DNA from: Dictyostelium discoideum
Taxonomy: Eukaryota
Direction: 5' to 3'
Assembly (NCBI GenBank): GCA_000004695.1
Contig: CM000152.2
Location: 384,001 to 448,000 of the forward strand
DNA length: 64,000 bases
Part shown: one piece after another, positions 1 to 31,787 of the stretch
Layout of the letters: the number at the start of each line of letters is the position of its first letter
How positions within the stretch are numbered: the stretch's first letter is position 1
The notes under the pieces: generated by a model
Seen by the model: the letters and a program-made list of their open reading frames with translations, nothing else
Told to the model about the DNA's origin: nothing
Database searches by the model: none
Translations under genes and position numbers: made by a program

Positions 1-406
1 GGAAAAAAAAAAAAAAAAGGAAAAAAATATTTTCTGTATTTTAAAATCAAATGTTATTATTATTTAAATATTTAATTTCCTAATACATTCCAATCATTCT
101 TTTTTTTCTTTTTTTTTTTATTAATTAAATTTAATTAATCCAAAAAAATAATAAAAGGAAATAAAAATAAAAACAAATAATCACAATAACCAGGTGCCTT
201 TTCTTTTTTTTTTTTTTTCACAATTTTTTTTTTTTTTTTTTTTTTTTGATCAAATCTGAAAAAACTTTTTATTTCCAAGATATTTAAAAATTAGCTGTTT
301 TCACTGAAATTAAAAAATACAATTTTATTATCATAAAAAAATCTAAAGCAAAAAGGAAAAAAATTAATTCCTATCTTTGAACAAAATTGTTAATCACATG
401 ATATTT

Positions 407-437
<31 letters not shown>

Positions 438-820
438 GTCATTATTTTCATTTACAACTTCAAAAAAAAAAATAAAAAATAAAAATAAAATTGAAAATAA
501 AAAAAAAAAAAAAAAAAAAAAAAAAAGTGAACAGAAAAAAATAAAAAAATTATGGTAAGGCGGAGGTTGTTAAAAACGTGGCTATTTGACTTTTTTTTTT
601 TTTTTTAAAACTAAACCTTTATGCTTGTTTTTTAACATTACATTTTTTTACAATTATGAAAAAAAAAATGATTTCCGAACCATTTTGATAAAGAATATTT
701 TGTTTTGACTTGATTTTATTTTTTCATTTTTTTTTCATTTTGTTTTTTTTTATTTTTTTTTTTATTTTTAAAAAAAAAAAAATCAAAATGTTTCGAGCTT
801 ATTTTATTTTTTTTTTTATT

Positions 821-857
<37 letters not shown>

Positions 858-1353
858 CCTAATCACTTACTTTTTTCTTTTTTTTTTTTATTCAACTCAA
901 CACAACAAAACATATGCATACATATATTGATACATATGGATTTTGGTTGATCTATTAAACAATAAATTTTAGGAATTTTTTTTTTTTTTTCAATTCATAT
1001 TTTTGTTTTCCATATTTGTAAATAATAAAAATAATTATTTTTAGATCACTCAAAATTTTAGCTCTAAAAAAAAAAAATAAATAAACTTTATAATTTTGTA
1101 GATATAAATATTTTTCTTTTTTTTTTTTGTATAAACCCATATTTATATATCCATACCAATCAACAATCAACAATCAACAATTAATTAATAATAATTTATA
1201 AATTATAATTTAAAATTTAAAATTAAATACTTAATAACTAATAATTAATAATTAATAATTAATAATAATAATAAAAATAATTAATTAATAAAAAAAATAA
1301 ATAAAAAAAAAATATAAAATTAAAGTTGTAAAATTAAAAAAATCAAATAAAGA

Positions 1354-3534
1354 ATGTTAAAGTTCGAAGAATTTAAAAGCTTCTCAAAGAAAAATTTCTC
1401 ATTTTTTCAAGAACAATATCAAATTAGTAAAAAAGAATTAATAATCCTTTTAAAATGGTCTATTCCATTAATTGTTTCAAATTTATTAAATAATGTTTCT
1501 TATTTATTCGTAAATTTAATTTTTGTGGTAAGTATTATTTTATTATTATTTTTTTTTTTTTTTTCAACCATCCAAACCACACCACTTTTTTTTCTTCGAT
1601 TCCAATGAAACCTCCTCAAATTTTTGCAGTTTTTTAAAAAAAAAAAAAAAAAAAACCAAGATATTTTGAAAAAAAAAATATCAACACCAAAAAAAAAAAA
1701 TATCTTGTTTTTTAACCACCCACACTCCCCCATTTTTTTTTTTTTTTTCACATTCAAAAAATTTTTCATTTTTTTTTTTATTTAATTATTAATTCTCGAT
1801 TTTTTTGATTTTTTTGATTTTTTTTTTTTCTAAAAATAGGGTAAACAAAGTGCTGATCAATTAGCAGGTGTTGCATTATCAAATACATGGACATATTGCA
1901 CAATGAGTTTAGCTACTGGTTTAGCAAATGCTATGGATACATTAGTATCACAATCATTTGGTGCAAATAATTTAACATTAGTTGGATTGACATTACAAAG
2001 AGCGTCACTTGTATCGAATGCATCATTTTTAATAGTTACAGCATTATGGTGTATAACTGAAAAATTCTTATTATTAGTTGGACAAGATAGTGAAGTATCT
2101 TATTACGCTCAACAATATTCATTATTTTTATTACCAGGACTTTGGTTTTACCTTCAAACAAATGTTTTACAAAAATATTTACAATGTCAAGGTGTAATGT
2201 GGCCATCGATTGTGGTTGGTTTCATTATGAATGCATTCAATGTATTATTTAACTTTTTATTTGTCGGTGAGAATTATGGAGATTTCTCATATAAAGGCGC
2301 GGCATTAGCCACATCAATCTCTAGAATATTGGCGTTTTTCTTAATGTTGGCAGTGATAAAAATTTGGAAACTTCATGAAGAGACTTGGTTTGGATGGAAA
2401 CGAGAATGTCTAAGTTTACAAGGATTTAAAGAGTATCTTAAATTGGGGGGACCAGCATCCATCCAGCATGCCTCGGAAGCCATTGGTTTTGAGGTTTTAA
2501 CGATTTTAGCAGGTTTATTGGGCCCGGGCAAAGTGCCATTGGATGCCCATTCAGTTACATATAATTTCACACAATTGACATACCAATTCCCAAGCGGCAT
2601 TTCCATAGCGACATCAGTGCGTGTCGGTCAATTATTAGGTAGTAAAAATGAGTCAATGGCCAAGAGAGTATCTTGGATGGCATTTGTCATATCATTGATT
2701 TTCATGGGTATAATAGCGATTATTCAATATACTTGCAGACATGTAATTGGCTACATTTACTCAGACTCTGAGGATGTAGTTCAAACAGTTGCTAAAATTT
2801 TACCAATAGCTGCACTCTTTCAAATTTTCGATGGAGGTCAAACCATTTTTCAAGGTGTTGTAAGAGGTATGGGTAGAGTTATCACTGGTGCACTTTGTAA
2901 TTTCATTGCGTTCTATGTGATCTCTATACCCTTATCAGCAGTATTTGCATTTCCTTTAGATAAAGGTGTCGAAGGTTTATGGTGGGGTTTATGTGTTGGT
3001 TTGGTCACAATTTGTGTAATTTTAATTATAATCATTTTCAGAGTCAATTGGACCACTGAAATGGATAGAGCATTTGAAAGAACTAAATCAATGAATATGT
3101 CTCAAGCTGATCTAGAGAATGGTTTAGAATTACAACAAAAACAAATGGCTCAACAAGAAAACAATTGTGGTTCTTCAACTGATGGTGTTAGTACAAGTGA
3201 AGGTTCACCAATAACAACTATTAAAGTTACCACTGAAGCTGTAGTTCAGGAATCATACGATGATGATATAAATGATAAAAATAGTGATAATAATAATAAA
3301 AATAATAAAAAAAATAATAATTCAGATGATGAGGACGACGACGATGAAGATGTTAAATCAAATAAAAAGAGAAGAGGTTATAATAATTATAGAACTTCAA
3401 GTCATCATCAAATGAGAACTAATAGTAATAATAATTTTAGAACAAATAGTCATAATAATTTTAGAACAAATAGTAGTCCTGATTTTAGAAATGAAGTACC
3501 TGATCAATCTGTAAATAGATGTCATCCACAATAA
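1354..3534 (+). CDS. MATE (multidrug and toxin extrusion) family transporter, 2 exons: 1354..1527 and 1840..3534
   Basis: Exon 1 (MLKFEEF...NLIFV) ends at a GTAAGT donor at 1528. A 312-nt AT-rich intron ends at the TAG acceptor at 1838-1839. Exon 2 reads GKQSADQLAGVALSNTWTYCTMSLATGLANAMDTLVSQSFGANN, which is a typical MATE N-terminal signature. Multiple hydrophobic TM segments follow, then a C-terminal N/S/D-rich low-complexity tail. The exon-1 frame (58 codons) joins in phase to the track ORF 1903..3534. Confidence 0.85.
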
Positions 3535-3739
3535 AAAAAAAAAAAAAAAAACTGGAAAAAAAAAAATCAGAAAAAAAAAAAAAAAAAAAAAAATATTGAT
3601 TTTAGATAATCTTTTTTAAAATAAAGTTTACAAAATAATATTTAAACTATTTATTAATTTTTATATATATGTACACTAGAATATTTTTTTATTTATTTTT
3701 ATTTAGATTTTTTTTTAGATTTTTTTTTTTTTATTTTAT

Positions 3740-4320
3740 TTATGGTTGATATTGTGGTTGTTGTTGTTGTGGTTGATAGAATTGTGGTGGTTGTTGTGGA
3801 ACTTGTTGATAAGTTGGATAAGCTCCTTCACTTTGATAAATTGGAATGGTGGCAGGTGGACTTTGTCCAACGCATGATTTTGTGAATTCACATTCATTAT
3901 AATGTTTAACCATCTTGTGAGTATAAAATGCATCAAATAGCCAACCTAAACCAAATACACCTGCTGTAAAGAAATATAAAAAGAATGTACCAACTCTTCC
4001 TAAATATAATCTTTAAATTTATTTTTTTTTAAAAAAAAAAAAAAAATTAATATTTTAAAAATATATTTTTGTGTGTGTGTTTTTATTAAATTAATTAATT
4101 TTTACCTGTGGAAACCTAAAATACCAAAAAAGAACCAAAGTACATAAGCAACGGTCATTGATTTTGGACAATATGATGATGATCTTGATCCATATACAAC
4201 TGGAACTGGTGTAACAATTGGTGTAACTAAAACTGCACCTCCACCATAGTGTCCACTACCATGATGGTGATGATGATGGTGATGACCGCTGCCTCCGTGA
4301 TGATGATGATGATGACCCAT
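3740..4320 (-). CDS. TM2 domain-containing membrane protein with N-terminal poly-His tracts, 2 exons: 4106..4320 and 3740..4010
   Basis: Minus-strand exon 1 reads MGHHHHHHGGSGHHHHHHHHGSGHYGGG...CPKSMTVAYVLWFFFGILGFH and ends at a GTAAAA donor at 4105-4104. The intron is 95 nt. The acceptor is the AG at 4012-4011. Exon 2 continues RLYLGRVGTFFLYFFTAGVFGLGWLFDAFYTHKMVKHYNECEF...QQQPQYQP* with the stop at 3742..3740. The GxHR(F/L)YLG...GxxGxxWxxD pattern matches the TM2 family. The track ORF 3736..3936 is a different, chance-open frame. Confidence 0.75.
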
Positions 4321-5079
4321 TTATATTATATTATATTTTTATTTTATTTTATTTTTATTTTATTTTTATTTTATTTTATTTTTTTATTTTACAATATACT
4401 TTTATTTATTTTATGTATATATATTTTTTTTCTTTGGAAATATAAGAAAAAGAAAAAAAAAAAAAAAAATTTTTAGTGCCTTTTGGTGTGAAAAAAAAAA
4501 AAATAAAAAAAATAAAAAAAATTTAATTCAAAAAAAAATAAAATAAATTTGCGTTATATTGATATCTCAAAAAATCAAAAAATCAAATAATTTATTTTTT
4601 ATTTTTTTTAATTTTTTTTTTTTTTTTGAAAATTTAAAAAAAGGGATCGCAGACTCACATTTTTATTTTTTTTTAATCATTAAGAAATCTGTCATTCTCT
4701 TCACCCAAAAAAACAAACTAAAAAAAAAAAAGAAAGAAATTTCTTTTTTAACCAAAGAATTATTAATAATACCAATAAAACTCGTTAATATTTTTTTTAA
4801 AATGACCAATCTTTAAGTAAAAAAAAAAAATTAAAATAAAATAATTATATAAATATATAATTTAAAACCAAATAATATTTTGTTTTCCTTAAAAAAAAAA
4901 AAAAAAAAAAAAATTAATCGTTGGAAAAAAAATCATTAACTTAAAAATATATCGAAAATCAAACAATAAAAAAAATGGAATTTTAAATGTTTAATTGATT
5001 GTGATATTAAATAAATATTATTTGTTAAAAAATGAAATTATTATTAACAATATTATCAAAATAATGTTATATTGTTTTT

Positions 5080-5403
5080 TTACTCCGTCATTTGGTATTT
5101 TTTCATTTTTTTGTTTGTTTAATTGGTAAATAAATTCATCAGTTGAGTTTGAAAATAAAATATCAATTTTACCATTTTCATAAAAATAAGTATAATTTGT
5201 AAAATTACCAAAACAACGAATAATTTGATCATTTTCAATTGAACAACTTGTAACAGTTGGTAATTCAAAATAAAATTCAGTACGTGTAGTTTGGTTACCA
5301 ATTGAAATTGAAATTTGATTCCTTCCACAACCTTTTGGAATTCGGAAGAGAATATATCATTGGAATTATCAATACCTTTAATAGTTGTATTATAATTATC
5401 CAT
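5080..5403 (-). pseudogene. Small ORF family member (copy A), frameshifted relative to paralog copy B at 7115..7267
   Basis: The N-terminus MDNYNTTIKGIDNSNDIFSSEF aligns at nucleotide level with copy B (MDNTIIKGTASSNQTYTFQIPKGCGKNEISISMGNQITRTE). Copy A is 1 nt short near 5340, so its conserved segment (IPKGCGRNQISISIGNQTTRTEFYFELPTVTSCSIENDQIIRCFGNFTNYTYFYENGKIDILFSNSTDEFIYQLNKQKNEKIPNDGVKKTI*) sits in a different frame from its ATG. Confidence 0.4.
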
Positions 5404-5622
5404 GAATGAAAGAGTTTGTAAACTATTATTATTTATTATTACATTTACATTATATAATGTATAGTTTACAAGTTGACCAAGTACTGATAGTGGTAGTGAT
5501 GGTTGTGATGATTTACAAAGAATGAAATCAATTTGGATAACATTTGATTTTTTACCATTTGCAATTAAATATAAATTTGAATTTTTAAAAGTTTGATTTG
5601 AAGGTGTAAATGATTAAGTTGT

Positions 5623-5922
5623 TTGTTTAATATGGATTCATTTTCATTTAAATTTAATAATAATTATAAAACAAATGAAGTTTATTTAAATGTTTGTATT
5701 GAACTATTACCAATTACTAATATTGTATTAAATTCAACAATTCAAACATTTCAACCAACAATAACAATAAATACATTACAACCTCAATTAAATAGTTCGG
5801 CAGAGCAAGAAAATAAAGAAAATAAAACCAACAGTGACAGTTTTAGTTCAAATGAAAACATATTAAATAAGAAACAAAAAAATGAAAAAATAACAAATGA
5901 CGGAGTAAAAAAAACAATATAA
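5623..5922 (+). CDS. Small hypothetical ORF (99 aa) sharing only its C-terminus/3' flank with copy A via the inverted repeat
   Basis: Track ORF MFNMDSFSFKFNNNYKTNEVYLNVCIELLPITNIVLNSTIQ...KKQKNEKITNDGVKKTI. The last ~14 codons and the downstream ~85 bp lie inside the right IR arm. No recognisable domain. Confidence 0.3.
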   Translation: MFNMDSFSFKFNNNYKTNEVYLNVCIELLPITNIVLNSTIQTFQPTITINTLQPQLNSSAEQENKENKTNSDSFSSNENILNKKQKNEKITNDGVKKTI

Positions 5923-6324
5923 CATTATTTTAATAATATTGTTAATAATAATTTCATTTTTTAACAAATAATATTTATTTAATATCACAATCAATTAAAC
6001 ATTTAAAATTTTATTAAAGTTTTATTTTTATTTTTATCTTTTTTTGATTTAATAAATGCTCATTTATCATTAGTTTTTTTTATTGTTTTTTTTAAAAATA
6101 GATTAGTTGGATGGGACAATGGAATGATTAAAATAAAAAGAAAATAAAAAAAAAAAAAAAAAAATAAAAAAACTTTGGAAAAAAAAAAAAAAAAAAAAAA
6201 AAAGCGAAAAAAAAGTGAAAAAAAAGCGAAAAAAATGTAAAATGAAAAATTTTTGTAAAACCCATAACATGTGCTCAAACAAAATAGCATTTTAGGGCAA
6301 GTTGAATTTATTTTTTAAAGTTAT

Positions 6325-6475
6325 GAAAAGATCTTGCACTCGGATTTCAATCCGATTCATTAGGGATTCCATCTCTAGTGAGTTTAGATTTCGTTTGCAG
6401 AGAAAAAACCTAGGCAGTTTCCACATCTGACTTTTCCTATATAAGAGCCTGATACTATTCACTCAAGCCTATATT
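6325..6475 (+). ncRNA. Candidate small non-coding RNA gene / Pol II-III small-RNA promoter unit (DUSE-like motif + GC-normal island)
   Basis: An ACCCATAA at ~6263-6270 matches the Dictyostelium upstream sequence element consensus CCCA(C/T)AA, which lies ~60 bp upstream of many ncRNA genes. About 60 bp downstream starts a ~150-nt GC-normal segment inside an AT desert (gatcttgcactcggatttcaatccgattcattagggattccatctctagtgagtttagatttcgtttgcagag...) with no ORF. It contains a hairpin-capable cggatttcaatccgattc and a TATATAAGAG box at ~6438, and it ends before a poly-A/T run. I could not match it to U1/U2/U4/U5/U6, 7SL, a tRNA or the Class I RNA motif by eye. Confidence 0.3.
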
Positions 6476-6477
6476 CC

Positions 6478-6513
<36 letters not shown>

Positions 6514-6860
6514 ACCAATTATAAAATAGATAGATTTATTAATTGATTCATTTATTAATTATTATTATTATTACTATTAAAATAATTTAAAACTCAATAA
6601 TATTTTTTTTTTCTAAAAAAAAAAAAAGATTAGTCACTAAAAAAAAAAAAAGTGTGGGTTTAATGATAATTATGAAAATCATATACAACTACTAGTAGAA
6701 ATTAATATTAGTAGTAAATACTATTAGTAAAAATTATAAATAAAATAATTAAATAATCAATTAATTAAAAAAAAAAAAAAAATTCTACAAATAACATATA
6801 TATTTATTTTTAAAAAATAGTTTATGTGATGCCAATTAAATTAAAAAACCCCAAAAAAAA

Positions 6861-7017
6861 AAAAAAATAATAATTACCTTTTGGTGTATAAGATCCATCA
6901 ATTTTGAAATTAAAAAAACAAATAAAAATAAAAATAAAAATATAATTTTCATATTGTAATTGCAATGTTTAGATCTTATACACCAAAAGGTAATTATTAT
7001 TTTTTTTTTTTTTTTTT
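6861..7017. repeat. Perfect palindrome / MITE-like hairpin element (≈45-bp arms, ~75-bp loop)
   Basis: aaaaaaaaaaaaaataataattaccttttggtgtataagatc at 6861..6898 has an exact inverted partner gatcttatacaccaaaaggtaattattatttttttttttt at 6974..7017. The arms end in A/T homopolymers. Confidence 0.8.
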
Positions 7018-7114
7018 TAAAAAAAATTAACTTAAATTTGACACTTTTTTAATTTTTATATTTAGTTATTAATGTAAATGTAATAGATAAAATAGTTTAC
7101 CAACTCTTAAATTG

Positions 7115-7267
7115 ATGGATAATACAATTATTAAAGGTACTGCCAGTTCAAATCAAACATACACTTTCCAAATTCCAAAAGGTTGTGGAAAGAATGAAAT
7201 TTCAATTTCAATGGGTAACCAAATTACACGTACTGAATTGAATTATGAATTACCATGTGAATTTTGA
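7115..7267 (+). CDS. Small ORF family member (copy B), 50 aa, hypothetical
   Basis: ATG at 7115, reads MDNTIIKGTASSNQTYTFQIPKGCGKNEISISMGNQITRTELNYELPCEF*. It is a nucleotide-level paralog of copy A at 5080..5403. It is below the track's ORF size cutoff and its function is unknown. Confidence 0.35.
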   Translation: MDNTIIKGTASSNQTYTFQIPKGCGKNEISISMGNQITRTELNYELPCEF

Positions 7268-7452
7268 AGAATTTAATTTAATTTCACCCACACCATGACC
7301 ACCACCACCACCACCACCGCCACCACCATTACCGAAACACTGTGTCAAAATTAAATAAAATAAAAAATGGATTTAATCATTTATTTTTATTATCTTTTTT
7401 TTTTATTTTTTTATTTTTTTTATTTTTTTTTTATTTTATTTTATTTATTTAT

Positions 7453-8277
7453 TTATTTCTTGGTGGGAAATTGAAAACTGAAAAAAATATTAAAATTAGC
7501 TAATAAACCTGGACAAGCTTGTTTAATTGAAGTTGTATCTAAAGTTTGATTAAAAATGGATTCTTTTTCTAAAAGATTATAAATTTCATAGGATGGTTCT
7601 TGATGTGATTTAATATTTAATTTCTCTAATAATTCAGTTTCGTTATCTTCATAGAAATGGTATCTTCCACCTAATCTTTGTTCAATTAATTCAACTGGTG
7701 TTTTACAATAAATATAAACACTATTATAATTTTCATTATTAATTTCAATAATTTTTTTGATTTCTTTAATTAATTTTTCATTATCATTATTATTATTAAT
7801 AATATTATTATATATAATTGAACTAATTGGAGATCTATGAATAAATATAATATTATTTTTAATTTCATCTTGATTATTATTATTATTATTATTTTTAATT
7901 AATTCAATTGATTGATTTAATGTATTATCAAATGATGATGTGGGTGGTGATGATAATGAATGTTTAAAAAATGAATTTTGAATAGTTTTATAACCAATAT
8001 TTGAAAATCTTTCTAAAAGTTGTTGTTTTCCACTACCACTTGGACCTTCTAAAAAAACAAATAATGGTTTCTTTTGTTCTTTAGATTTCTCTAATGCCTC
8101 TGATAGATTATCTGTTGGTTTCCACCATTCTCTTTCAACTGATCCTTCTTCTCTTATAGATTTTGAATAAAATTTTAATGATGATAAAGATGTTAAAGAT
8201 TCACCAAAAATTTTATTTTTTAAACAAATATTATTAATAGTTGATGATGTAAAATTATGATTTCTAACTAAAAACAT
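7453..8277 (-). CDS. P-loop NTPase, divergent nucleoside/nucleotide-kinase-like protein
   Basis: The ATG is at 8277; the track ORF starts at an upstream TTG. Walker A reads LFVFLEGPSGSGKQQLLERF. Later motifs (IIFIHRSPISSIIY, LIEQRLGGRYHFYEDNE) resemble the ERS and arginine-lid regions of dNK/dCK-type kinases, with a poly-N insert. The family assignment is tentative. Confidence 0.5.
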   Translation of the reverse strand: MFLVRNHNFTSSTINNICLKNKIFGESLTSLSSLKFYSKSIREEGSVEREWWKPTDNLSEALEKSKEQKKPLFVFLEGPSGSGKQQLLERFSNIGYKTIQNSFFKHSLSSPPTSSFDNTLNQSIELIKNNNNNNNQDEIKNNIIFIHRSPISSIIYNNIINNNNDNEKLIKEIKKIIEINNENYNSVYIYCKTPVELIEQRLGGRYHFYEDNETELLEKLNIKSHQEPSYEIYNLLEKESIFNQTLDTTSIKQACPGLLANFNIFFSFQFPTKK

Positions 8278-9078
8278 TTTTATTTTTAAACACAACCCCT
8301 CAACAAGATTACAAAAAAAAAAAAAAAAAAAAATTAAAAAAAAAATTAAAAAAATTTGATCAATTATTTCACTTTTTTTTTTTTTTATGTTTTATAATTT
8401 ATTTGTCCCACCATGTTTTTACAAAAAAAAAAAATAAAATAAAAAAAAAAAAAAATTAATAAAAAAAATTAAAATAATATAGGCTATTTTAGTTTGCAGA
8501 TAATAAAAAATGTGTTTTTTCTTTTATTTTGTATTTTAACTTTTGTAATAACCATTTAAAGTTTTTTTTTTTTTTTTTGGAAAGTGGAAAATGTGGGGTG
8601 AAAATATATACACATAAAAAATTATTGTGGGGGTAATTGTAGTAACTCTAACATTTTCTAAAAATAATTAAAATATTTTATAACTTAAATAATCATTAAA
8701 AAAAAAAAAAATTATCCACACACACTTATATAATAATAATAATATCATCAAAAACATTATCATTAAGAAAAAAAGTTTGAATCTATTGTCTTTTCAAAAA
8801 ATAATAATAATAAATAATAACATCAAAAAATAATATTATCATAAAAAAATAAAAAATTAAAAATTAAATGTTCGGTTTACTTTTAATTTCTTTTTTGTTT
8901 TATTATTATTATTTAATAAAATTAAAAAAAATAAAAAATAAAAAATTACCTAACTTTTTTTTAAAAAAAAAAAAAAATATTATTATTATCAAAAAAATTT
9001 TATTTTAAATATTTATTTATTAATTTATTATTTAATATAAATATTTCTAATATATATATTATATAATAAAACTATATA

Positions 9079-9110
<32 letters not shown>

Positions 9111-9143
9111 TTTTTAATTTTAAAAAAAAAAATAATAATAATT

Positions 9144-11891
9144 ATGAAATTTAAAATAATAATAGTTTTAATATTATTTATAATATTTAATTATTATATT
9201 ATAAATATAAATGGATCATTTGATTTTAAATCAAAAAAGAATGTTGTTGGATATTATTCAAATAATTTAAAGAATAAAACATTAAAATATCATACATTAG
9301 GAGAATTTTGTCAACAAGGTAGTTATGATACAATTGTAATTGGGTCACTCTATTGGAATCAAAATATGACACAATTTTATTTTGAATGTCAAGATTATTA
9401 TTCATTAACTCAAGATAAAGAAAAAGAATTGGGTGTCGCAACAACACCAGTCCAACATTTAAAAGCATTTGATTTCTCAAAAAGAGGTGTTCAAAATGCA
9501 ATGAAAGAACAAATTTCTGACGAAGAAGAAGAAGAAGAAGTTGATATTCCAACAACAAAAACAAAAACAACAGCAACAAAAGCAAAAACAACAACAACAA
9601 CAACAACAATTAAAAAAATTGGTATTGAAAAGAATACATATCTTTCAAATAAATGTATTGATTTAAGAAATGATATAATTAAATGTCAAAATATTGGTGT
9701 TAAAATTTTAATTCAAGTTGGTAGTAAAGGTGGTATTGGTGAATTTGGGAATACATCAATTGCTACCAAAGAAATGGCTCAAAAATTGGCAGTTAAAATT
9801 TGGGATATGTTTTTATTTGGTGATGGTGGTAGAAAAGAGTATCAAGATAAATTAAAAGGTATAGATACAAAACCAAAGAATGATGGATCGTCAAGTGAAG
9901 AAATTGCATCATTTGGTAGTATTGAATCAATGGATGATCAAAGTGGTGATATTGAAGATATCGATCGTTTCAGTAGTGAAGTTAAAAAAGATGATTCCTC
10001 CTCAAACTCAACTGCATCACTTGGTGAATTGGATGATTATCAAGATGAACAATCTTATCAAGAGGAATATTCAAATGATGAAGATACAGATCCACCAATA
10101 CCAGATGATGAAGATTCTGAATATGTTGATCAAGAACAATATGAAGATGAAGAGGAGGACGATGATGAAGATGCAGTTGATGAAGATGGTAATCCAATTG
10201 TAAAGAAAAAGAAACAACCATCAACTTCAAAAGCACCAGAAAGAAAGAAGAAATTATTGGTTTTCCCACCACGTCCATTTGGTTATGGTGTATTTTTAGA
10301 TGGTGTTGATTTCTCACCAATGATTGGTAAAAGTGATAACTACTATCATTTGGCAATGGGTTTAGATAGATATAGAGTACCAAAGAAGGATTTATTCACC
10401 ATTTCCTCAACTGTGGATTGTTCGCTACTTCATAGTAAAAAAGAAAGTATGACCTCTTCTCCAACTGCTTTATTACGATTTAATTTCGATATTCTCACTT
10501 TAGATTTCGTTCATAATAAACAATGTGATTATTGGTCAAAAGTTAGTGATCAATGGATTATCGATTGGGCAAACTATACAAAAGACTATAAATTCAATCA
10601 AACTAAACTACTCTTAATGGCATCTTCAAATCCAAAGGATTCTGCTTTCTTCTCTCCAAAATTCTTTTTAATGGAATATACAAAATATTGCATTGATTTA
10701 CCAAATATGGCAGGTGTTTTTATCTCTGATGTTTTATCAGCTTCAAAGATTTATAATTCAACCACTAGATTGGATTTCTCTCAAGAAATATCAAAAGATG
10801 TTAAATCATTTAATCCATTAATTTATCATCATCCAGAAGGTACTCGTCCAGCTTGGACCTATGGTGGTGGTTCTAAACCTCCAACTTCACCTGCAACTAA
10901 ACCAATTCAAACTAAACCGCCAATTACCAAAGGTCCAATTATAACAATGTCTCCTAACAAAACTAAAACTTCAACAACTACCAAACCAGTACCAACAAAA
11001 ATTCCAATTATTGATAATAGTAATTCAACTTCAACAACTGTTAAAAAAGCAAATTCTTCACATTCAACTCCAACACCCACTATTAAATTAAGACCAACTC
11101 ATGCACCATTAAAAACACAATCACCTGAACCAAAAACTGAATCACCAACTCCCACTAGTACTCCAACACCTTCCTCAACAGTTGCAAAAACTACTCATGC
11201 ACCATTAAAAACTCAATCCCCAACACCAAAATTAATACCTATTACTAAAAAACCAATAACACCAACCAAAGCTCCAATAACTAAAGCTCCAATCCCAGTA
11301 ACTGAATCACCAACACCAGAGACTGAATCACCAATTAAATTGAGACCAACTCATAGACCACTAAAAACACAATCTCCAGAGACCGAATCAACAAAACCAA
11401 CTAAACCACCAACAACAACAACACCAAAACCAACTAAACCACCAACATCACCATCACCATCACCAAAACCAACCAAACCACCAACAACATCAGCACCACC
11501 TAAAAAAGAAACAACATCACCAATAAACTTAAGACCAACTCATAAACCACTAACACAACCACCAGTTGATGAATCTAAGACTAAAGTTTTGGACATTTCT
11601 GATGAAACAGAAACTAGAGTAATAACCATTCCAGATGATTCTGAAACACCGGCTAAATTAGAAATTCCAGACAATACAAAACCAGAAACACCGATTGAAT
11701 CCTCTGTTCCAATCAAATCTGTTGCTGCAGTTGATAAAACACCTGTTAAATCCGCTGCTCCAATCGAATCAGCTTCTCCAGTTGATGAAATACCTGTTGA
11801 ATCCGCTGCTCCAGTTGAAGAAACTAGAAGTAGAAGACATAAACCAATAAGTGCAACCGAATTTGATAAAAATTTCATCACAAATCAATAA
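9144..11891 (+). CDS. Secreted GH18 (class III chitinase/hevamine-like) domain protein with degenerate catalytic motif, an acidic insert, and a C-terminal Pro/Thr/Ser-rich mucin-like repeat tail
   Basis: N-terminal signal peptide MKFKIIIVLILFIIFNYYIININGS. GH18 class III blocks: VVGYYSN...TLGEFCQQGSYDTIVIGSLYW, KCQNIGVKILIQVGSKGGIGEFG, RPFGYGVFLDGVDFSPMIG and DYWSKVSDQWIIDWANY...LLLMASSNP. The canonical DGxDxDxE is replaced by DGVDFSPM (the Asp and the Glu are lost), so the protein is probably inactive, like narbonin/concanavalin B. The tail carries ~21-aa repeats (IKLRPTHAPLKTQSPEPKTESPTP / LRPTHRPLKTQSPETEST / NLRPTHKPL). Confidence 0.8.
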   Translation: MKFKIIIVLILFIIFNYYIININGSFDFKSKKNVVGYYSNNLKNKTLKYHTLGEFCQQGSYDTIVIGSLYWNQNMTQFYFECQDYYSLTQDKEKELGVATTPVQHLKAFDFSKRGVQNAMKEQISDEEEEEEVDIPTTKTKTTATKAKTTTTTTTIKKIGIEKNTYLSNKCIDLRNDIIKCQNIGVKILIQVGSKGGIGEFGNTSIATKEMAQKLAVKIWDMFLFGDGGRKEYQDKLKGIDTKPKNDGSSSEEIASFGSIESMDDQSGDIEDIDRFSSEVKKDDSSSNSTASLGELDDYQDEQSYQEEYSNDEDTDPPIPDDEDSEYVDQEQYEDEEEDDDEDAVDEDGNPIVKKKKQPSTSKAPERKKKLLVFPPRPFGYGVFLDGVDFSPMIGKSDNYYHLAMGLDRYRVPKKDLFTISSTVDCSLLHSKKESMTSSPTALLRFNFDILTLDFVHNKQCDYWSKVSDQWIIDWANYTKDYKFNQTKLLLMASSNPKDSAFFSPKFFLMEYTKYCIDLPNMAGVFISDVLSASKIYNSTTRLDFSQEISKDVKSFNPLIYHHPEGTRPAWTYGGGSKPPTSPATKPIQTKPPITKGPIITMSPNKTKTSTTTKPVPTKIPIIDNSNSTSTTVKKANSSHSTPTPTIKLRPTHAPLKTQSPEPKTESPTPTSTPTPSSTVAKTTHAPLKTQSPTPKLIPITKKPITPTKAPITKAPIPVTESPTPETESPIKLRPTHRPLKTQSPETESTKPTKPPTTTTPKPTKPPTSPSPSPKPTKPPTTSAPPKKETTSPINLRPTHKPLTQPPVDESKTKVLDISDETETRVITIPDDSETPAKLEIPDNTKPETPIESSVPIKSVAAVDKTPVKSAAPIESASPVDEIPVESAAPVEETRSRRHKPISATEFDKNFITNQ

Positions 11892-11987
11892 TACTCAATT
11901 GAAAAAAAAAAAATACATTTAGAATAAAAAAAAAAATATAAAAAGTAACATTATATCATTATTTTATTATTTTATTGTTTAAATTAA

Positions 11988-13691
<1,704 letters not shown>

Positions 13692-14104
13692 AATATTTTT
13701 TATTTACATATTAAATAAAATAAAAAATATTAAAAAAAAAAAAAAATTAAAAAAAAAAAAAAATTTTTTAAAAAAAAAATTAAAAAAAAAAAAAATTACA
13801 ATCATCAAATTTAATAAAATAATTCTTATTTTTTTAGGTGAACTTAAAATTTTGAAAATCTAAAAATCTTAAAAAAAAAAATCATCACTTTCAAAAAAAA
13901 TCATTTTTTAAAAAAAAAAAAACAATTAATTGTGAAAATAAACCAGATTTAAAAATTTAGAATTTTAAAAATAAAAAAAAATAAAAGAATATAAAAAAAA
14001 AAAAAAATTTAAAATTTTTTTTGTAAAAATATTTAAAATTTCTTATATTAATTTTTTAAATTTAAAAACAATCATAAAAATTTTATATATATATTTAAAT
14101 AAGG

Positions 14105-16297
14105 ATGCATGACACATCATTTACTGTTCATATAAAAGATGAAATTCCAACTTACATCTTTTTTATTGATACTTCAGGGTCAGTTGGAAAAATTGATTTT
14201 GAAATAGTAGTATTATGTTTAAAAAAAATAATTACTGAATTACCAGATAAAGTTAAAATTGAAATTATTGCCTTATCTTCAGATGCTATAATCGTTTTTA
14301 AAAAGCGGCAAAAATAAAATATTTGAAGATATTGAAAACAGTAAGTTCAAAATATCTTGGAATTAATATAAACTATATCAATAAATTTAAAATTAATTTT
14401 TTAACCATTATTTTTTAGATTTACTTTTTGATAGTGGTGCTACTAATTTGGTTGAAGCTTTAAAACTTGGAGAGGTAACCATTACTAATTTTTGTATGAA
14501 TCAAAAAAATTATTTTGTTCTCTTGACTGATGGTGTACCAACTGATGATCCTGAACCAATTATTCAAAAATTAATTTTAAAGGTAATATCAATTATTTAT
14601 ATTAATAAAAAATAATTTTATATATCCAAATTTTTTTTTTTTTTTTTTTTTTTTTTATTTGGGAGTTGATTTTATTGTATTAGCAATTGGAATGGATTCA
14701 GATAAAAAAAAAATTCAAAAATTGTTCCCAGGCCAACATCTATTCATGTTTGATACATTTTCTGGTCTTAGTAAATGTGTGCACACTTTGATTCCATCTC
14801 ATATTTCTATACCATTGACTACCGAAATTTATCCAAAATTTGAAAAAATTCAAAAGTCAAATGAAGCTTTTTATATAATCATTAAATTATCGTCTATCTA
14901 TCCAAAAGATAAATTTCTTGAAAATGAAATAACTTTTATTATCAAGGATAATAAATACCATAGTGGCTATGAAATAAAAGTTGGTCAAGCCACAAGTGAA
15001 GATTGTCCAAGTGAAACAACTGCAAAACTAATTTTTAAATGTCCACAAGAAATGTTACCAACCCATATTGATTTTGAAATCAAAGTAAGGGGATCCACAT
15101 TCCATGGTTATTTCGATTTAAAATACTCTTGGTTCACTGGTGATTTTATTACTAGAAGTCCAATTAATATTTGGGTTGATGGTATGGTTGGTCATGGAAA
15201 ATCAATTTATTATTTAATATTTTTTCATTAAATATTGATTTTGAAGAATTTTTACTTGTAGGAAACAATGCTTTTCATGTCACCACGGAACTTAGATTCC
15301 AAAGTGTTGCTCATATTTTAGCAACCAAAATCGTTAACCAACATGGTCTCTCTCCAAGACTTGTTGACTTTTACAAGAATGTTATCAACTCATTAAAAAT
15401 TGTGTTTGTCGATAAGCCGGGTATGGCAAAGAACCAAGGTAACCTTAGCTATACTCATGCAACAAAGGGCCAATACTCTAACAAACAACACCTAAAAGAT
15501 CTTATCACTGTTGGCGAAGCAAAGTCTTCTCTAGAATGTCATGCTATTCTTTTCGTGATTTCAATTACATTGGTTGATGATGATGTAGATTTTGAATTCA
15601 TAAAAGGTAAAATTCGAGAATCACTTCAAGCAAAAATCAAACCAATTGTTGTGGTCACTCACTGCGACGACTATTCACCAGAAGAAGCTGAAGCAATGAA
15701 AAAGAAACTTGAAGAAGAACTAAAGGTTGATAAAAAGAATTTCTTTTATTTAACTCCATATATTCAAGGTGAGAAACAACGTGATCCAACAAAAGATAGA
15801 ATTGTTTTTCAAATACTCAAATCTATTGTTGAAATTGCCAATAACACTCAAAATCAAAAAATATTAGAATCTTTGGCCAACGATATTAATAACAATAATA
15901 TAGATGAAATTTGTAACTCCTTTGTAAATACTTCTATTAGTTCAACTACCACTACCACTACCACTACTACTAATTCAAATACCTCAAGTGCTAATTCGAC
16001 TCCAAATGGAAATTCCTCTTCACCTTTATTATCCCCAAATGTTGTTGGTTCAGAATCTACTCTTTGGACAATTTGTGTAAAGAATGATTTAACAGATGCA
16101 AAAGTAAATGAAGCCAGATTTAGAGTTTATCCATCAATGACCTTAAAGATTTTGTTTCAAGAGTGTCACAAAAGTTTAAACTTTCTGTTGGTCTTTTTAG
16201 TTTTACAGATGAAAATGGTTATGATCTTTTATTCCCAGATGAATCCATTTTACTCAATGTTTTATCTGATAATATTACCCTTTCAATCTCTGATTAA
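14105..16297 (+). CDS. Multi-exon gene: vWA domain + AIG1/GIMAP-like GTPase domain + C-terminal PB1/ubiquitin-like domain; the gene model is uncertain and carries apparent frameshifts
   Basis: vWA part: the exon starting at 14105 has FFIDTSGSVG (a MIDAS DxSxS motif). The exon 14419..14582 has LLFDSGATNLVEALK...VLLTDGVPTDD and ends at a GTAATA donor. The track ORF 14659..15231 reads GVDFIVLAIGMDSDKKK... and ends with a GTPase P-loop, VDGMVGHGKS. GTPase part: 15262 onward has VFVDKPGMA (G3 DxxG), HAILFVISI, and VVVTHCDDY (G4), as in AIG1/GIMAP. C-terminal part: the last exon (~16125..16297, frame-shifted relative to the upstream part, entered via the acceptor ATTTAG) encodes INDLKDFVSRVSQKFKLSVGLFSFTDENGYDLLFPDESILLNVLSDNITLSISD*, which is PB1-like. 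Problems: there is a T5-run frame change inside exon 1 (AIIVFKK / SGKNKIFEDIEN). There is a T6-run frame change between the P-loop and the rest of the GTPase domain. The acceptor of the third exon is non-canonical. Confidence 0.5.
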
Positions 16298-16483
16298 AAT
16301 AAATTATAAATATAATAAAATAATTTTTTATGTATATATAATAATAATAACAATAATAATAATAATAATAATAAAAATAATAAAAATAAAAGCAATTAAC
16401 ATTAATTGACGCAATAAAATTTTAACTAATATTTATTAATTAAATTGAAATGTTTTTTTTTTTTTTTTTTTTTAATATTTAAC

Positions 16484-18497
16484 TTATTTAGTTGGTTGGA
16501 TATTTTTAACCATAGTAGCTAAATATTTGAAACGAGCAACACAATCTTTTTTAGATTTAGTACCGAGACGAGCTGCGATTTGATCCCAACGATCTTCAGC
16601 ATTTTTATCGACTTTTTGTAAAGCTTCTTCCAAGAGTTTTTGTTCTTCTGGTGTCCATTCAACAGAGGCAGTGGTAGTGGTAGTTTCTTTTTTAGCGGCT
16701 GGTTTGGCGGTGTCGACAGTTGATGGAGCGGTGGCGGTAGTGGTTGATTCAGTGCCATTTGAAGTGGTACCTACTGGATATTGACCGAGGTCAACTTTTG
16801 AACTGAGTTCAGATTTAATTTCCATATGACCAACTTTGGCTTTTAATTTATCATAATCGGAACCTGATGGAGCAGCTTCTGGTTTTGAGAAAGATTGTTG
16901 TTGAGTTGGTTGTGAGGTTTTAGCTTTGGCGATAACGTCTTTCAAAGAACGAGTTGGAATACAAGATGCAACGGATTCCCAACGTTTGGTAACACCTGGT
17001 GGGAACTTTTGGATGGCTTTAGCCAAGAGATGGAGTTCATCTTCAGTCCATGGTCTCTCTGGTTTAGCTTCTTTCTTATTGTTGAGTAATGCTTTTCTTT
17101 GCTCTTGATAGAGTCTGTCGGCCTCTCTTTGTTTCTCTTGAATTTCGTTCAATTGGACGAGGAAAACTGCTTTCTTATCGGTGACATTATTTTTGGTTTC
17201 CATTTCTTTGGTGAGCTCGCCTAATTGGAGGTTGTCCAAGGTGGCGATGACCAATTCAACATCTTCAATCTTTTGTGGTGGTTGGAATGATTTACAAATG
17301 TCACGGAATTGGATCTTACCCTTCTTTAATAATGCGGTTTGTTCAGCTTTGACACGTTTCTTTTCTTCGGCTTCGTCTTTCTTTCTCTTTTCTTCGGCTT
17401 CGACTCTTTCTTTTTCAGCTTTTTCAGCGGCTTCTTTTTCTTCTTGTGCCTTTCTCTTGGCTTCGTTTTTGGCATTCTTGTGTGCATTCTTTTTGTCGTC
17501 TTCTTCTTTTAATTTCTTTTGAATACGTGGATCTTTTTTGTAGGCGAGATTGGCGAGATCTTGAATACGTGCAGCTTCGATCTTTCTTTGTTTGACACGT
17601 TTCTTTTCATTCTCTCTCTCCATCCAACGTTTCTCTTCACGAGAGTCTGCATTATCTAAATCATGATCATCTTCAAATGTGAAATCTCTCCATGACTTGA
17701 ATGACCACCAAAAGTTATAGAATTTAACAACCTTATCATATGGAGTATCCATATCACCAAGTTTTGGTACTGGTTGAACGTTTGACCAACGAGAGTTACT
17801 ATCAAATACTGGTTCATAGATTTCGAAAAAGTCACCTTCTTCATCGGCTGTTGGAATATCATCATCAAATGGATCGGTTGAATCGTATGCTCTTCTCTTT
17901 TTAATATCACTTAAAATATTATTTGATTTAACTAATGCTTTAAATGCTTCATCATTACCACCTAAATCTTGATTTTTATCTGGATGAACAACTAAAATCA
18001 TTTTTTTATCTATTATTTAATAAATATTAATAAAAAAAAAAAAAAAATAAAAAAAAAAATCATATATTAATAAATTATTTTATTTTTTATTTTTTTATTT
18101 TTATTTTTAAAAACTTACATGCTAATTTAATATCATTATCGGTAGCTCTCCAACGTAAATGATCTAAACCCATGATTTTGTAATGATTAACATCTTTACC
18201 AGTTTTAGTCCACTCTTTATGATTATTTTTATAGTTTTCTTTTAATTCGTCAATGTTGTCATCATCATTTGAATCTTGAGATTTCTTGTCATCTGAAGTG
18301 GCACTAACCAAGCCAATGATTTCGACATCACCCTTTTTGACTTTACTCCAAACTAATTCAAACTCTTCACCAATTGGTTCGACTGAACGATTACATTCAC
18401 TCCAACCTAAAGATCCGTTGGTGTAATGAATTTCTCTTGAATTTTCATTTGACCATTCTTCTGCTGTTGGTGATGATAAAGATACAACAAGTGACAT
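16484..18497 (-). CDS. dnajc2: DnaJ homolog subfamily C member 2 (zuotin/MPP11-like): J domain + zuotin homology domain + two SANT domains, 2 exons: 18119..18497 and 16484..18009
   Basis: Exon 1 ends NHYKIMGLDHLRWRATDNDIKLA followed by a GTAAGT donor at 18118-18113, in phase 1. A 109-nt AT-rich intron ends at the TAG acceptor at 18012-18010. Exon 2 continues Y-KKMILVVHPDKNQ, completing the J-domain HPD motif. The Lys/Glu-rich charged region (zuotin homology) follows, then two SANT/Myb repeats (WTEDELHLLAKAIQKFPPGVTKRWESVASCI and WTPEEQKLLEEALQKVDKNAEDRWDQIAARLGTKSKKDCVARFKYL). Confidence 0.9.
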
Positions 18498-28649: not shown

Positions 28650-30044
28650 ATGAAAGTTTTATTATTATTGGTTTGTTTAGTTTTTGCTTATGTTAATGCA
28701 AGTTATGATGCATGTTACAATGTAGTTTGTCCAAGTAACTATCAATGTAGAGCTGAAGGTGATCAAGCTTATTGTGTACCAGAACATCATGAGTATGGTT
28801 GTGATAGACATTCATGTGGTCGTGGTTATGAATGTGTTGAGCGTTGGGATTCCTTTTGTTGTAAACCAATTCATCACCGTCCACACCCACACCCACGTCC
28901 ACCACATCCACACCCACGTCCAACCAATTGTGATTACACTTCTTGCCCAAGAGAATTTGATTGTCATGTAATCAATAGAAATGTCACTGCTTGTTTACCA
29001 GATAACCATGTTTGCAGAGATTTCCAATGTCCAGTAGGTACTCATTGTTTCAATGGTGAAAGAGGTCCACACTGTGTAAGTGATACTCATTATCCAAATT
29101 TATGTCGTGTAACCAAATGTTCATATGATTTCACTTGTAAAATGGTTAGAGGTAATCCAACTTGTTTAAGAAATCATGATGGTATTTCAACCCATTCTCC
29201 AACCCATACCCCAACCCATTCTCCAACCACCTCTCCAACTCATTGTCCATCTTGTACCGAATTAGCTCCATTTTGTCATTCTGCAGGTTTGGTTTGTAGA
29301 ACTATTCTTAATCCATCTTGTGTTTCTGCAGTAAGAGGTATCATCAATACTAGATCTTGTTGTACCTATATTGCAGTATGTGCTTCAAATTCAACTTCAA
29401 CAACTGGCGCTACTACTGGTGCTACTACACCCACAAGCACAACTGGTGCTGCAACTACCGCTGCTGCTACTACCACTACAGCCACAAGTACAACTGGTGC
29501 TGCAACCACTGCCCCAGCAACTACTACAACCACAAGTACAACTGGTGCTGCAACTACTGCCCCAGCAACTACAACCACAAGTACAACTGGTGCTGCAACC
29601 ACTGCCCCAGCAACTACTACAACCACAGCCACAACTATAGTAGGTGTTACCACTGCTAATTCAGTAGGTGGTTTAACTACTACTAGAGCAACAACAGTTG
29701 CTGGTGTCACTACTGCTAATTCAGTAGGTGGTTTAACTACTGCCGGCATTACAACAGTTGCTGGTGCCACTACTGGTAATTCAGTAGGTGGTTTAACTAC
29801 TGCTAGAGCAACAACAGTTGCTGATGTCACTACTGCTAATTCAGTAGGTGGTTTAACTACTGCCGGCGTTACAACAGTTGCTGGTGCCACTACTGGTAAT
29901 TCAGTAGGTGGTTTAACTACTGCTAGAGCAACAACAGTTGCTGATGTCACTACTGCTAATTCAGTAGGTGGTTTAACTACTTCTAGAGCAACAACAATTG
30001 CTGGTGCCACTACTGCCAATTCAATAGGTGGTTTGACAAATTAA
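28650..30044 (+). CDS. Secreted Cys-rich N-domain / Thr-Ala-Gly-rich tandem-repeat (mucin-like) protein, paralog A
   Basis: Signal peptide MKVLLLLVCLVFAYVNA. Two Cys-rich modules separated by a HHRPHPHPRPPHPHPRP linker. The second module (NCDYTSCPREFDCHVINRNVTACLPDN...FNGERGPHC...YPNLCRVTKC...MVRGNPTCL) is shared with the 32548 gene. Then tandem TTGAATTAPATTTT and ANSVGGLTTARATTVA(G/D)VTT repeats. Confidence 0.7.
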   Translation: MKVLLLLVCLVFAYVNASYDACYNVVCPSNYQCRAEGDQAYCVPEHHEYGCDRHSCGRGYECVERWDSFCCKPIHHRPHPHPRPPHPHPRPTNCDYTSCPREFDCHVINRNVTACLPDNHVCRDFQCPVGTHCFNGERGPHCVSDTHYPNLCRVTKCSYDFTCKMVRGNPTCLRNHDGISTHSPTHTPTHSPTTSPTHCPSCTELAPFCHSAGLVCRTILNPSCVSAVRGIINTRSCCTYIAVCASNSTSTTGATTGATTPTSTTGAATTAAATTTTATSTTGAATTAPATTTTTSTTGAATTAPATTTTSTTGAATTAPATTTTTATTIVGVTTANSVGGLTTTRATTVAGVTTANSVGGLTTAGITTVAGATTGNSVGGLTTARATTVADVTTANSVGGLTTAGVTTVAGATTGNSVGGLTTARATTVADVTTANSVGGLTTSRATTIAGATTANSIGGLTN

Positions 30045-30384
30045 AATTTTAATCAAAACAGAAACACCTAAAACAAGAAATGGAAAACGTAAATAAAATT
30101 TTAATTTATTTAAATTTTTTTATTTTAGATTTTATTTTTTATTTCTAAATTTTATTTTTTTATTTTTCTATTATATTTTTTATTTTTTTTTATTTATTTT
30201 ATTTTATTTTTACTTTTTTTATTTTATTTTTACTTTTTATTTATTTTATTTTTATTTTTAATTTTATTTTTAAATTTATTTATTTTGTTTTTATTTTTAA
30301 ATTTTATTTTTATTTTTATTTATTTTATTTTATTTTATTTTTACTTTTTTTTATTTTTATAAAGATTTAGAACAATTTGATGAT

Positions 30385-31288
30385 ATGACTGGGATCTCTA
30401 ATATTAATTTTTTTGATTTATTAAAAAAGGTTGAATTTTTAATAAAAAAAAAAAAAGATAATAGAGGTCGAAAACAAATTTATAAAACAAAAGAAAAATT
30501 ATTTGTCACCTTGTTTCACATGAGGCATTATACAAGATTAATTGTTTTAAATAAGTTGTTTGGTATTAGTGCATCTACATTCACTAGGATATATGATGAG
30601 ATATTGGATATACTTTTTCAATTATCATTAGGATAATTTTGAAGAGGTTTTTAAAAATAGATTTAATGAAGAAACAAGCTGTGTAGATTATGAATCTCCA
30701 GATGTTGGTCTGGCAACAATTACAATGGTAGTTGATGGATCAGAGCAGCAAATTACGATTCCATTAGATGAAGATGTCAAAAACATTTTATACAGTGGGA
30801 AAAAGGGTAAATCTACTCTAACCTTATTGGTTTATTGTTGTCCAAAATCTGGGAAAATATTACACGTAGGTTCAACATGTGGCGGAAGTAACAATGACAT
30901 CAATTTGTTTGAGAGAGATAAAGACTTTATATCAAAATAGGAAAAAGAAAAAGAATTTATATTAGGTGATAGAGGATTTGTTGGTGTTGGAAGGTTAGTA
31001 TTAACTATTCCAAAAGGTAAAAGAGATTATGAACAGAAACAAACAGATATAGATCAAAAATCAATAAGAATAATTATTGAAAATGTGTTTGCTAAAATAA
31101 AAAGATTCTTTATTACAAGTATGCCACTAAGATATAAATTTTCAGTAGGATCAATTGATATGGATAGTGTTCAAGAAAAACACCACAAAACATGGTGTGT
31201 TGTAGGCTATATTATAAATTTGTTTAAACCAATAAGAGATCTAAAAAAAAATCTTAAAAAAATGACAATAAATAATAAAATAATTTAA
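30385..31288 (+). pseudogene. Decayed Harbinger/PIF-type (DDE_Tnp_4) transposase gene remnant
   Basis: Three consecutive ORF pieces. The first, ...RGRKQIYKTKEKLFVTLFHMRHYTRLIVLNKLFGISASTFTRIYDEILDIL, is the HTH N-domain. The second, DNFEEVFKNRFNEETSCVDYESPDVGLATITMVVDGSEQQITIP...YSGKKGKSTLTLLVYCCPKSGKILHVGSTCGGSNNDINLF, holds the DDE core (DG[ST]...YSGKK...PGS.HD). The third, ILGDRGFVGVGRLVLTIPKGKRDYEQKQTDIDQKSIRIIIENVFAKIKRFFI, holds the LGDxGY...E motif. One +1 frame change near 30636 and one in-frame TAG at 30938-30940 interrupt it. No terminal inverted repeats were identified by eye. Confidence 0.6.
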
Positions 31289-31451
31289 TAATGAATTTAT
31301 TATAATCAATGATTTTTTAATTGTTCACTATTTTTTTTTTCCATATGAAATTAATATAAAAAAAAAAGAAAAAAAAACAAAAAAAAAAAATTTTTTTGAT
31401 TTTTTTTGATTTTTTTTTTTGGTGGGATCCATGATAAATTGTTTGGATAAA

Positions 31452-31486
<35 letters not shown>

Positions 31487-31730
31487 ATTTGTTTAAATTT
31501 CTATTTTATTCCTTTTGCTAATATCTATGGCCAAAAAGTTGGGAAATAATTTAATTTGATTTTAATTTTTTTTTTTTTTAAGATAAACTTGAAAATGTAT
31601 AAAGATTTTTGATCATTCACATAATTTGATATTAAAAAAAATAACCAATGTTTCTATTTACCATTTTAAAAGAATATAAAATCGAATTCTTTTTTTTTTT
31701 TTAAACAAAGTTTTTTTTTTATTTCTTTTA

Positions 31731-31787
<57 letters not shown>

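Follow-up and report, generated by a model that had tools for sequence, protein, structure and literature searches.

In Dictyostelium, the genes for Class I RNAs, spliceosomal RNAs and further ncRNAs are preceded, at approximately 60-63 nt, by the upstream element DUSE, [AT]CCCA[CT]AA (PMC3188802, PMC7919456), two papers with which the premise of a preliminary description of the present DNA, a DUSE about 60 bp before ncRNA genes, agrees. The question raised by the locus reported here is whether one exact copy of this element, followed at such a distance by a segment with a GC content far above that of its surroundings, marks a small ncRNA gene.

The locus lies within a stretch of 64,000 nt of Dictyostelium discoideum DNA, hereafter referred to as the window. 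Positions 1-18277 are 99.9% identical to locus L001 of assembly GCA_054883475.1, which identifies the source as D. discoideum. The genes at 7453-8277 (minus strand) and 9144-11891 correspond to DDB_G0278169 and DDB_G0278171, respectively, both on AX4 chromosome 3, and the coordinates of neighbouring genes in the supplement of Rosengarten et al. place the locus at approximately 380-398 kb of that chromosome. The candidate is intergenic and situated just outside a rearranged cluster of tgr-like pseudogenes. The element is also carried by two further D. discoideum assemblies (L005 and L006), which are identical to each other across it, and haplotypes were therefore compared as window/L001 versus L005/L006. 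The search space for further copies was 255 kb of dictyostelid sequence, i.e. the window together with nine related loci (L002-L010).

The DUSE-type motif and the GC-normal segment

The motif, ACCCATAA, is present at 6260-6267 on the + strand, three nucleotides to the left of the position first given for it (6263-6270), and is an exact match to the consensus and hence a putative upstream promoter element. It is identical in the three D. discoideum assemblies compared, and the 52 nt that follow carry five substitutions and one indel. A spacer of 64 nt (6268-6331), including the AT-only stretch TTTATTTTTTAAA at 6307-6319, separates the motif from the predicted hairpin described below. Counted from the end of the motif, the GC-normal segment begins at +52 nt and the hairpin at +64 nt, distances that are compatible with the published spacing, from which transcription would be expected to start at approximately 6323-6331.

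The GC content is 37% over 6320-6483 (39% over 6326-6425) compared to 8-18% in the flanks, which bears out the earlier claim of a composition far above background. As had also been noted, the segment ends at an A/T run, here A28 at 6484-6511 (on the minus strand T28, the type of run that precedes Dictyostelium Pol II starts), and TATATAAGAG is found at 6438-6447, the place reported for it. The A28 run is shorter and interrupted in L005 and L006, and runs of this kind are very common across the window. On the other side, a long A-rich tract (6130-6250) precedes both motif and segment. Part of this tract, 6181-6250, is of low complexity and consists of A-tracts with GCG or GTG every 11 nt (A8-GTG-A8-GCG...); a similar periodic A8-GTG array in the opposite orientation is present in an intergenic region of D. 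dimigraforme (L003, 11160-11290).

The sequence WCCCAYAA occurs seven times in the window versus 10.5 +/- 3.6 expected from dinucleotide shuffles; the motif alone is thus present at chance frequency and carries no weight. The number of known DUSE-dependent genes is below about one hundred. For the masked genome, a total of 7,409 matches to a relaxed DUSE has been reported (Sucgang et al.). Among the 26 strict matches in the 255 kb, 6260-6267 is the only one with a segment of at least 33% GC at +60 to +160 outside a long open frame, and it is likewise the only one of the seven in the window that has a downstream GC-normal segment outside apparent coding sequence. The combination of motif and GC-normal non-coding segment is rarer than the motif alone. 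In total, eight GC-normal islands lie outside long open frames in the 64-kb window; at least two of the others (4101-4353 and 7131-7398) are on coding or tgr-like sequence.

Predicted structure and coding potential

The best local fold of the segment is a predicted imperfect RNA hairpin of 72 nt at 6332-6403 on the + strand, with 28 pairs (five of them G-U), a UCC triloop and a folding energy of -23.7 kcal/mol. A small local hairpin had been proposed before, and its sequence, CGGATTTCAATCCG, is present at 6341-6354, but the energetically preferred structure is the larger one, which uses the same bases. When the best local fold of at most 75 nt was taken from each of 1000 dinucleotide shuffles of 6320-6483, a procedure that allows for the picking of a sub-window, the observed stability was reached by 5 of the 1000 shuffles for the + strand and by 731 for the minus strand. 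Part of this strand specificity is due to the five G-U pairs, which help the signal on the + strand. The z-score is -4.1 for 6331-6400 and +0.59 for the poorly folding 6400-6483, and the segment as a whole folds no better than its shuffles on either strand (z = -0.76 for the + strand, +0.37 for the minus strand).

Within the window the hairpin ranks approximately 32nd among local folds, and most of the better ones come from a repeat-coding region of 45-54% GC. Folds as stable at a GC content of at most 0.40 number about seven in the 128 kb of strand in the window, i.e. about one per 18 kb, corresponding to a chance of roughly 1% per 165-nt stretch. The hairpin is therefore good but not exceptional among natural sequences. 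The 45-54% GC region, at approximately 29400-38200, is repetitive (as read at 29429) and accounts for the majority of the window's strongest local RNA folds, which needs to be allowed for when the window is screened by structure.

Downstream of the hairpin, the unstructured stretch AAAAACCUAGGCAGUUUCCACAUCUGAC (6404-6435, + strand) leads into TTTT at 6432-6435, a possible RNA polymerase III stop, and this putative tail is invariant between the haplotypes. The remaining 3' part of the GC-normal segment (6436-6483), which includes TATATAAGAG, folds poorly. The putative RNA would have a length of approximately 105-113 nt with a stop at TTTT, or of approximately 155-160 nt with an end near 6483.

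The segment had been described as encoding no ORF. In a literal sense this does not hold, since a frame of 56 codons on the minus strand (6292-6462, GTG start) and one of 35 codons on the + strand (6323-6430) are open, but neither looks coding. The minus-strand frame is the only one open across the segment; its log-likelihood per codon is -0.47, compared to a mean of -0.51 for off-frame sequence and +0.22 for real frames, and rare codons make up 12% of it, above the 95th percentile of real chunks. No protein homologues were found with phmmer among 1.84 billion proteins, the two small ORFs of the segment gave no record among public contigs, and in L005 and L006 the minus-strand frame has lost its stop codon. 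Given the off-frame-like codon usage, the absence of phmmer hits and the non-conserved stop, the segment is unlikely to be a coding exon, whether functional or recently decayed.

Known RNA classes, haplotypes and relatives

Two checks proposed at the outset, a covariance-model scan and a search for the segment elsewhere and in related species (here within the 255 kb), both came out negative. Using Rfam at the gathering score, no hit was obtained in the window or on seven related loci, and a permissive scan of 6150-6600 (E <= 10) returned nothing beyond two hits at chance level (snR41 with 16 bits and an IRES with 11 bits); specifically, no covariance model for spliceosomal snRNA, SRP RNA, RNase P/MRP RNA or snoRNA matched. 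For the Class I RNAs, which carry the conserved 11-nt motif CCUUACAGCAA beside the 5' stem, neither CCTTACAG nor CTTACAGC occurs anywhere in the window. Class I RNAs are 42-65 nt long, with the 5' and 3' ends in a short stem and, in D. discoideum, a GUUGA start; the present segment is approximately 110-160 nt and has no such stem, and a GTTGA at 6301-6305 follows the motif by only 34 nt, with no partner and no adjacent 11-nt motif. Reading of 6320-6483 revealed no Sm site (A U4-6 G, expected in the single-stranded 3' part of an Sm-class snRNA); AAUUUUUG occurs only at 6249-6256, upstream of the DUSE, and inspection by eye gave no convincing matches to box C/D, a U5-like loop or the Pol III A and B boxes. 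An H/ACA snoRNA was considered, as AGAAAA after the hairpin resembles an H box, and rejected: there is no pseudouridylation pocket, the 3' half has a z-score of +0.59 and no ACA is in place. With respect to miRNAs, a text search, as distinct from read mapping, gave no match to 12-mers of the hairpin arms in the supplementary text of PMC6161686 and PMC11014262.

Searches for second copies in the 255 kb (BLASTN, TBLASTX and a covariance model of 6323-6440) recovered only the orthologous sites in L001, L005 and L006. A TRE5/TRE3 tail or a SINE found no support either, with no tRNA gene predicted in the 64-kb window (ARAGORN) and no second copy in the 255 kb. Exact scans of bacterial and archaeal genomes and, using two patterns, of the JGI metagenomes yielded nothing, and the same holds for BLAST searches of plasmids and phages and for a full-text search of papers for the candidate sequence; a scan for bacterial-type promoters and terminators was uninformative. 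The published lncRNA catalogue (approximately 200 nt and longer) has no entry at 238-455 kb of chromosome 3 and none next to DDB_G0278163-169, which speaks against long transcripts that start at the TATA-like box or lie on the minus strand and is silent on an RNA of 100-160 nt.

Comparison of the two haplotypes shows no difference over 6303-6438, and over 6303-6483 there are only two substitutions, A6439T and G6481A, which both lie downstream of TTTT. When the alignment is divided into 100-nt bins, 6326-6425 is free of substitutions and indels, like the best-conserved exon bins of neighbouring genes; nearby constrained exons have 0-3 substitutions per 100 nt, nearby pseudogene sequence 2-8 (eight at 5726-5825), and non-coding flanks 5-25 plus indels. 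The most variable part near the candidate is 6268-6302, between motif and segment. For the two haplotypes available, this pattern would fit constraint on the putative promoter motif and transcribed body; a lower rate of mutation in complex sequence than in A/T runs may be enough to account for part of the conservation. Since the hairpin is without haplotype differences, it offers no covariation. Moreover, the two genes on either side of the site in L005 are convergent and face it with their 3' ends, a position at which no mRNA promoter is expected.

The region of DDB_G0278169 (7453-8277) differs from L005/L006 by approximately 4-5% when indel columns are included and by approximately 1.5% in substitutions in the coding part. 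A divergence of 4-5% is high for D. discoideum, and it may reflect old haplotypes kept near the tgr-like cluster.

The interval from the TM2 gene (DDB_G0278163) to DDB_G0278169 measures 3.1 kb in the window, 6.3 kb in L005 and 2.9 kb in L006, compared to 1.27 kb in D. cf. discoideum, approximately 1.1 kb in D. citrinum and D. dimigraforme, and 0.49 kb in D. firmibasis; in D. purpureum synteny is broken here. The element is absent from the syntenic interval in all five of these relatives. The extra DNA in D. discoideum is a structurally polymorphic pair of tgr-like (Ig_TgrO1/TIG) genes (window 4740-7400; L005 11881-16290; L006 11641-13016), which is intact and head-to-head in L005 (GCA_054859355.1) and reduced to fragments in the window, where the last tgr-like exon has been split by an inversion between repeat arms at 4955-5119 and 5869-6034. 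The small ORFs at 5119-5403 (minus strand) and 5623-5922 (+ strand) are the two halves of this exon. D. cf. discoideum has a 35-nt stretch 86% identical to part of the same exon, which may be read as its trace; if so, the cluster predates the split from D. cf. discoideum. That the candidate is itself part of the tgr-like unit or of its 3' UTR was considered and rejected, as paralogue homology ends at 6048-6143 of the window, a limit seen with the second L005 copy and with two paralogous D. cf. discoideum loci.

The same interval holds a perfect 43-nt inverted repeat (6853-6895 and 6972-7014, with a 76-nt spacer), which could form a long hairpin or cruciform and is homologous to L005 13580-13761 between the tgr-like genes. 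There is also a 46-nt direct repeat (4857-4902 and 6582-6627, 89% identical) that brackets approximately 1.7 kb with the tgr-like fragments and the candidate and may be a footprint of the insertion or duplication of this block. Finally, a 150-aa gene model in GCA_054883475.1 (window approximately 5632-7267; L001 11011-12643) spans the candidate as an "intron" and joins two pseudogene fragments. No two-exon splice fits its 453-nt CDS, three-exon solutions are obtained only via a poly-lysine exon from the A-tract at 6141-6271, and the model looks like an annotation artefact.

Explanations and likeness to known systems

We tentatively favour, with a probability that we would put a little short of even, an orphan, D. 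discoideum-specific and independent small ncRNA gene driven by a DUSE on the + strand. In such a gene, ACCCATAA at 6260-6267 would recruit snRNA-type transcription machinery and transcription would begin at approximately 6323-6331. The RNA would open with the 72-nt imperfect hairpin (6332-6403), continue with a single-stranded tail of approximately 30 nt and end either at the T4 of 6432-6435, a Pol III-type stop, or before the A-run near 6483. It would fall outside all described Dictyostelium classes, with the tail or the hairpin as the probable working part, acting through base-pairing or protein binding. The prior probability that any one DUSE match is the promoter of an RNA from a class not yet described is very low (well under 1%). 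It is raised by the GC-normal non-coding segment, by a hairpin that is strand-specific and in register, and by the pattern of conservation, and lowered by the lack of class features, of a second copy and of a syntenic orthologue, the last of which weighs less because Class I genes also show little synteny. The original proposal of a small ncRNA gene is strengthened by the hairpin, by conservation between haplotypes and by the convergent-gene setting, and weakened by the absence of an Rfam family, by the absence from five relatives and by a motif at chance frequency. A more specific version, to which we give a distinctly lower probability and which we consider unlikely as it stands, is a recently born D. 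discoideum-specific member of an undescribed DUSE-driven class, i.e. an RNA of approximately 110 nt, probably made by Pol III, in which a long imperfect hairpin is followed by a single-stranded tail; its gene would have originated next to a fast-evolving tgr-like cluster of the allorecognition type, or been moved there.

As the main rival, we consider DNA without function, i.e. the remnant of a repeat, LTR or exon that was brought in by the duplications and inversions from which the tgr-like cluster was built, and in which DUSE and hairpin would coincide by accident; we regard it as rather unlikely, if clearly to be reckoned with. The interval 4740-7400 is lineage-specific and unstable, contains inverted and direct repeats and differs in size in every strain and species examined, and the candidate lacks class features, a match in Rfam and, in the five relatives, an orthologue at the syntenic site. 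DUSE matches are abundant in the genome, and comparably stable hairpins occur about once per 18 kb in this window. However, three independent low-probability features would then have come together by accident on one strand and at the expected register, and the segment is conserved like neighbouring exons while adjacent pseudogene sequence (5726-5825) has eight substitutions per 100 nt. In addition, the candidate lies outside the duplicated tgr-like unit, the homology of which ends at approximately 6048-6143, and no similar sequence is found in the 255 kb, plasmids, phages, bacterial genomes or JGI metagenomes.

The remaining alternatives place a transcript differently or have it processed. On the minus strand, T28 (6511-6484) and the TATA-like TTTTATAA just upstream of this run could be a typical Dictyostelium core promoter, with the segment as the 5' end of an mRNA, lncRNA or micro-ORF transcript, since poly-T directly upstream of starts is typical of D. 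discoideum protein-coding and miRNA genes (PMC6161686) and the only frame open across the segment, of 56 codons, is on this strand. We consider this improbable: the frame has off-frame-like codon usage, no protein homologues and a stop that has disappeared from L005 and L006, the other haplotype carries a shorter and interrupted T-run, the minus strand gives no structure signal, no lncRNA is catalogued at 238-455 kb of chromosome 3, and A/T runs flank almost everything in this genome. It had also been suggested that TATATAAGAG at 6438 is the TATA box of a downstream transcript on the + strand, i.e. that the segment is a promoter or regulatory module. The sequence does resemble a TATA box, and a TATA-like form, TTTATAAGAG, is retained in the other haplotype; this suggestion nevertheless finds no support and appears highly improbable, as the box is followed by A28 and not by the T-run typical of Dictyostelium starts, no gene start is close by downstream (more than 600 nt separate the box from the first + strand ORF after it, at 7112, which is a fragment of a tgr-like pseudogene), the lncRNA catalogue has no entry here, and the invariance of 6303-6438, upstream of the TATA-like box, would be left unexplained. 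Hardly more credible is a miRNA-type or other Dicer-substrate precursor, DUSE-driven or independent, whose 72-nt hairpin would be cut into RNAs of approximately 21 nt. The size of the imperfect hairpin and its 28 pairs suit Dicer-like processing, but the 12-mers of its arms are absent from the searched supplementary text of the two D. discoideum/Amoebozoa miRNA papers, and the known ddi pri-miRNAs are Pol II transcripts after T-runs, with the DUSE unmentioned in PMC6161686.

If the favoured small ncRNA gene is transcribed, an orphan would be added to the small DUSE-dependent set, now essentially the snRNAs and the Class I family, and it would be at most a new orphan member of the known DUSE-type ncRNA genes. 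It would also be a datable small-RNA gene in D. discoideum, missing from the same site in the closest relatives, and as such useful for understanding how new ncRNA genes arise and how little a DUSE needs to create one; were the undescribed-class version true, the DUSE promoter would, in one species, have been recruited to make new small RNA genes. Should the candidate prove not to be transcribed, a perfect DUSE, the right spacing, a GC-normal island and a significant hairpin would coincide by chance, which would set a false-positive rate for screens that combine motif and composition.

Among known systems, D. discoideum miRNA precursors of the mir-1176/mir-1177 type resemble the candidate in being intergenic, imperfect hairpins of approximately 70 nt. 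They are, however, capped Pol II transcripts after T-runs, and small RNAs from the candidate's arms do not appear in the published lists searched. The logic applied here, a GC-rich island in an AT-rich genome with an upstream DUSE, is that of the GC-composition and DUSE screen for ncRNA genes attributed to Larsson et al. 2008 (Genome Res 18:888), in which six of ten tested predictions were reportedly verified; the candidate locus may already be among those predictions, in which case the finding is already known.

Compared to the DUSE-dependent families, the candidate is apparently single-copy (in 255 kb) and seen only in D. discoideum. It differs from Class I RNAs in having no 11-nt CCUUACAGCAA, no terminal stem and no GUUGA start in register and in being two to three times longer, and from snRNAs in that no Sm site was seen and no Rfam snRNA model matched. 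What it shares with DUSE-dependent ncRNA genes (Class I RNAs and U1/U2/U4/U5/U6; PMC7919456, PMC3188802) is the exact consensus ACCCATAA and a distance of approximately 60-65 nt from the motif to the GC-normal segment with its predicted structure; in common are also the intergenic site, a GC content far above background, a short T-run that could stop Pol III and, as reported for Class I genes, low synteny between species. The DUSE is unrelated in sequence to the PSE/USE of animal and plant snRNA-type promoters (at approximately -55, used by Pol II and Pol III). Nevertheless, the DUSE is reported to serve both polymerases, and the proposed arrangement is alike: a short upstream element at a fixed distance from a small structured RNA.
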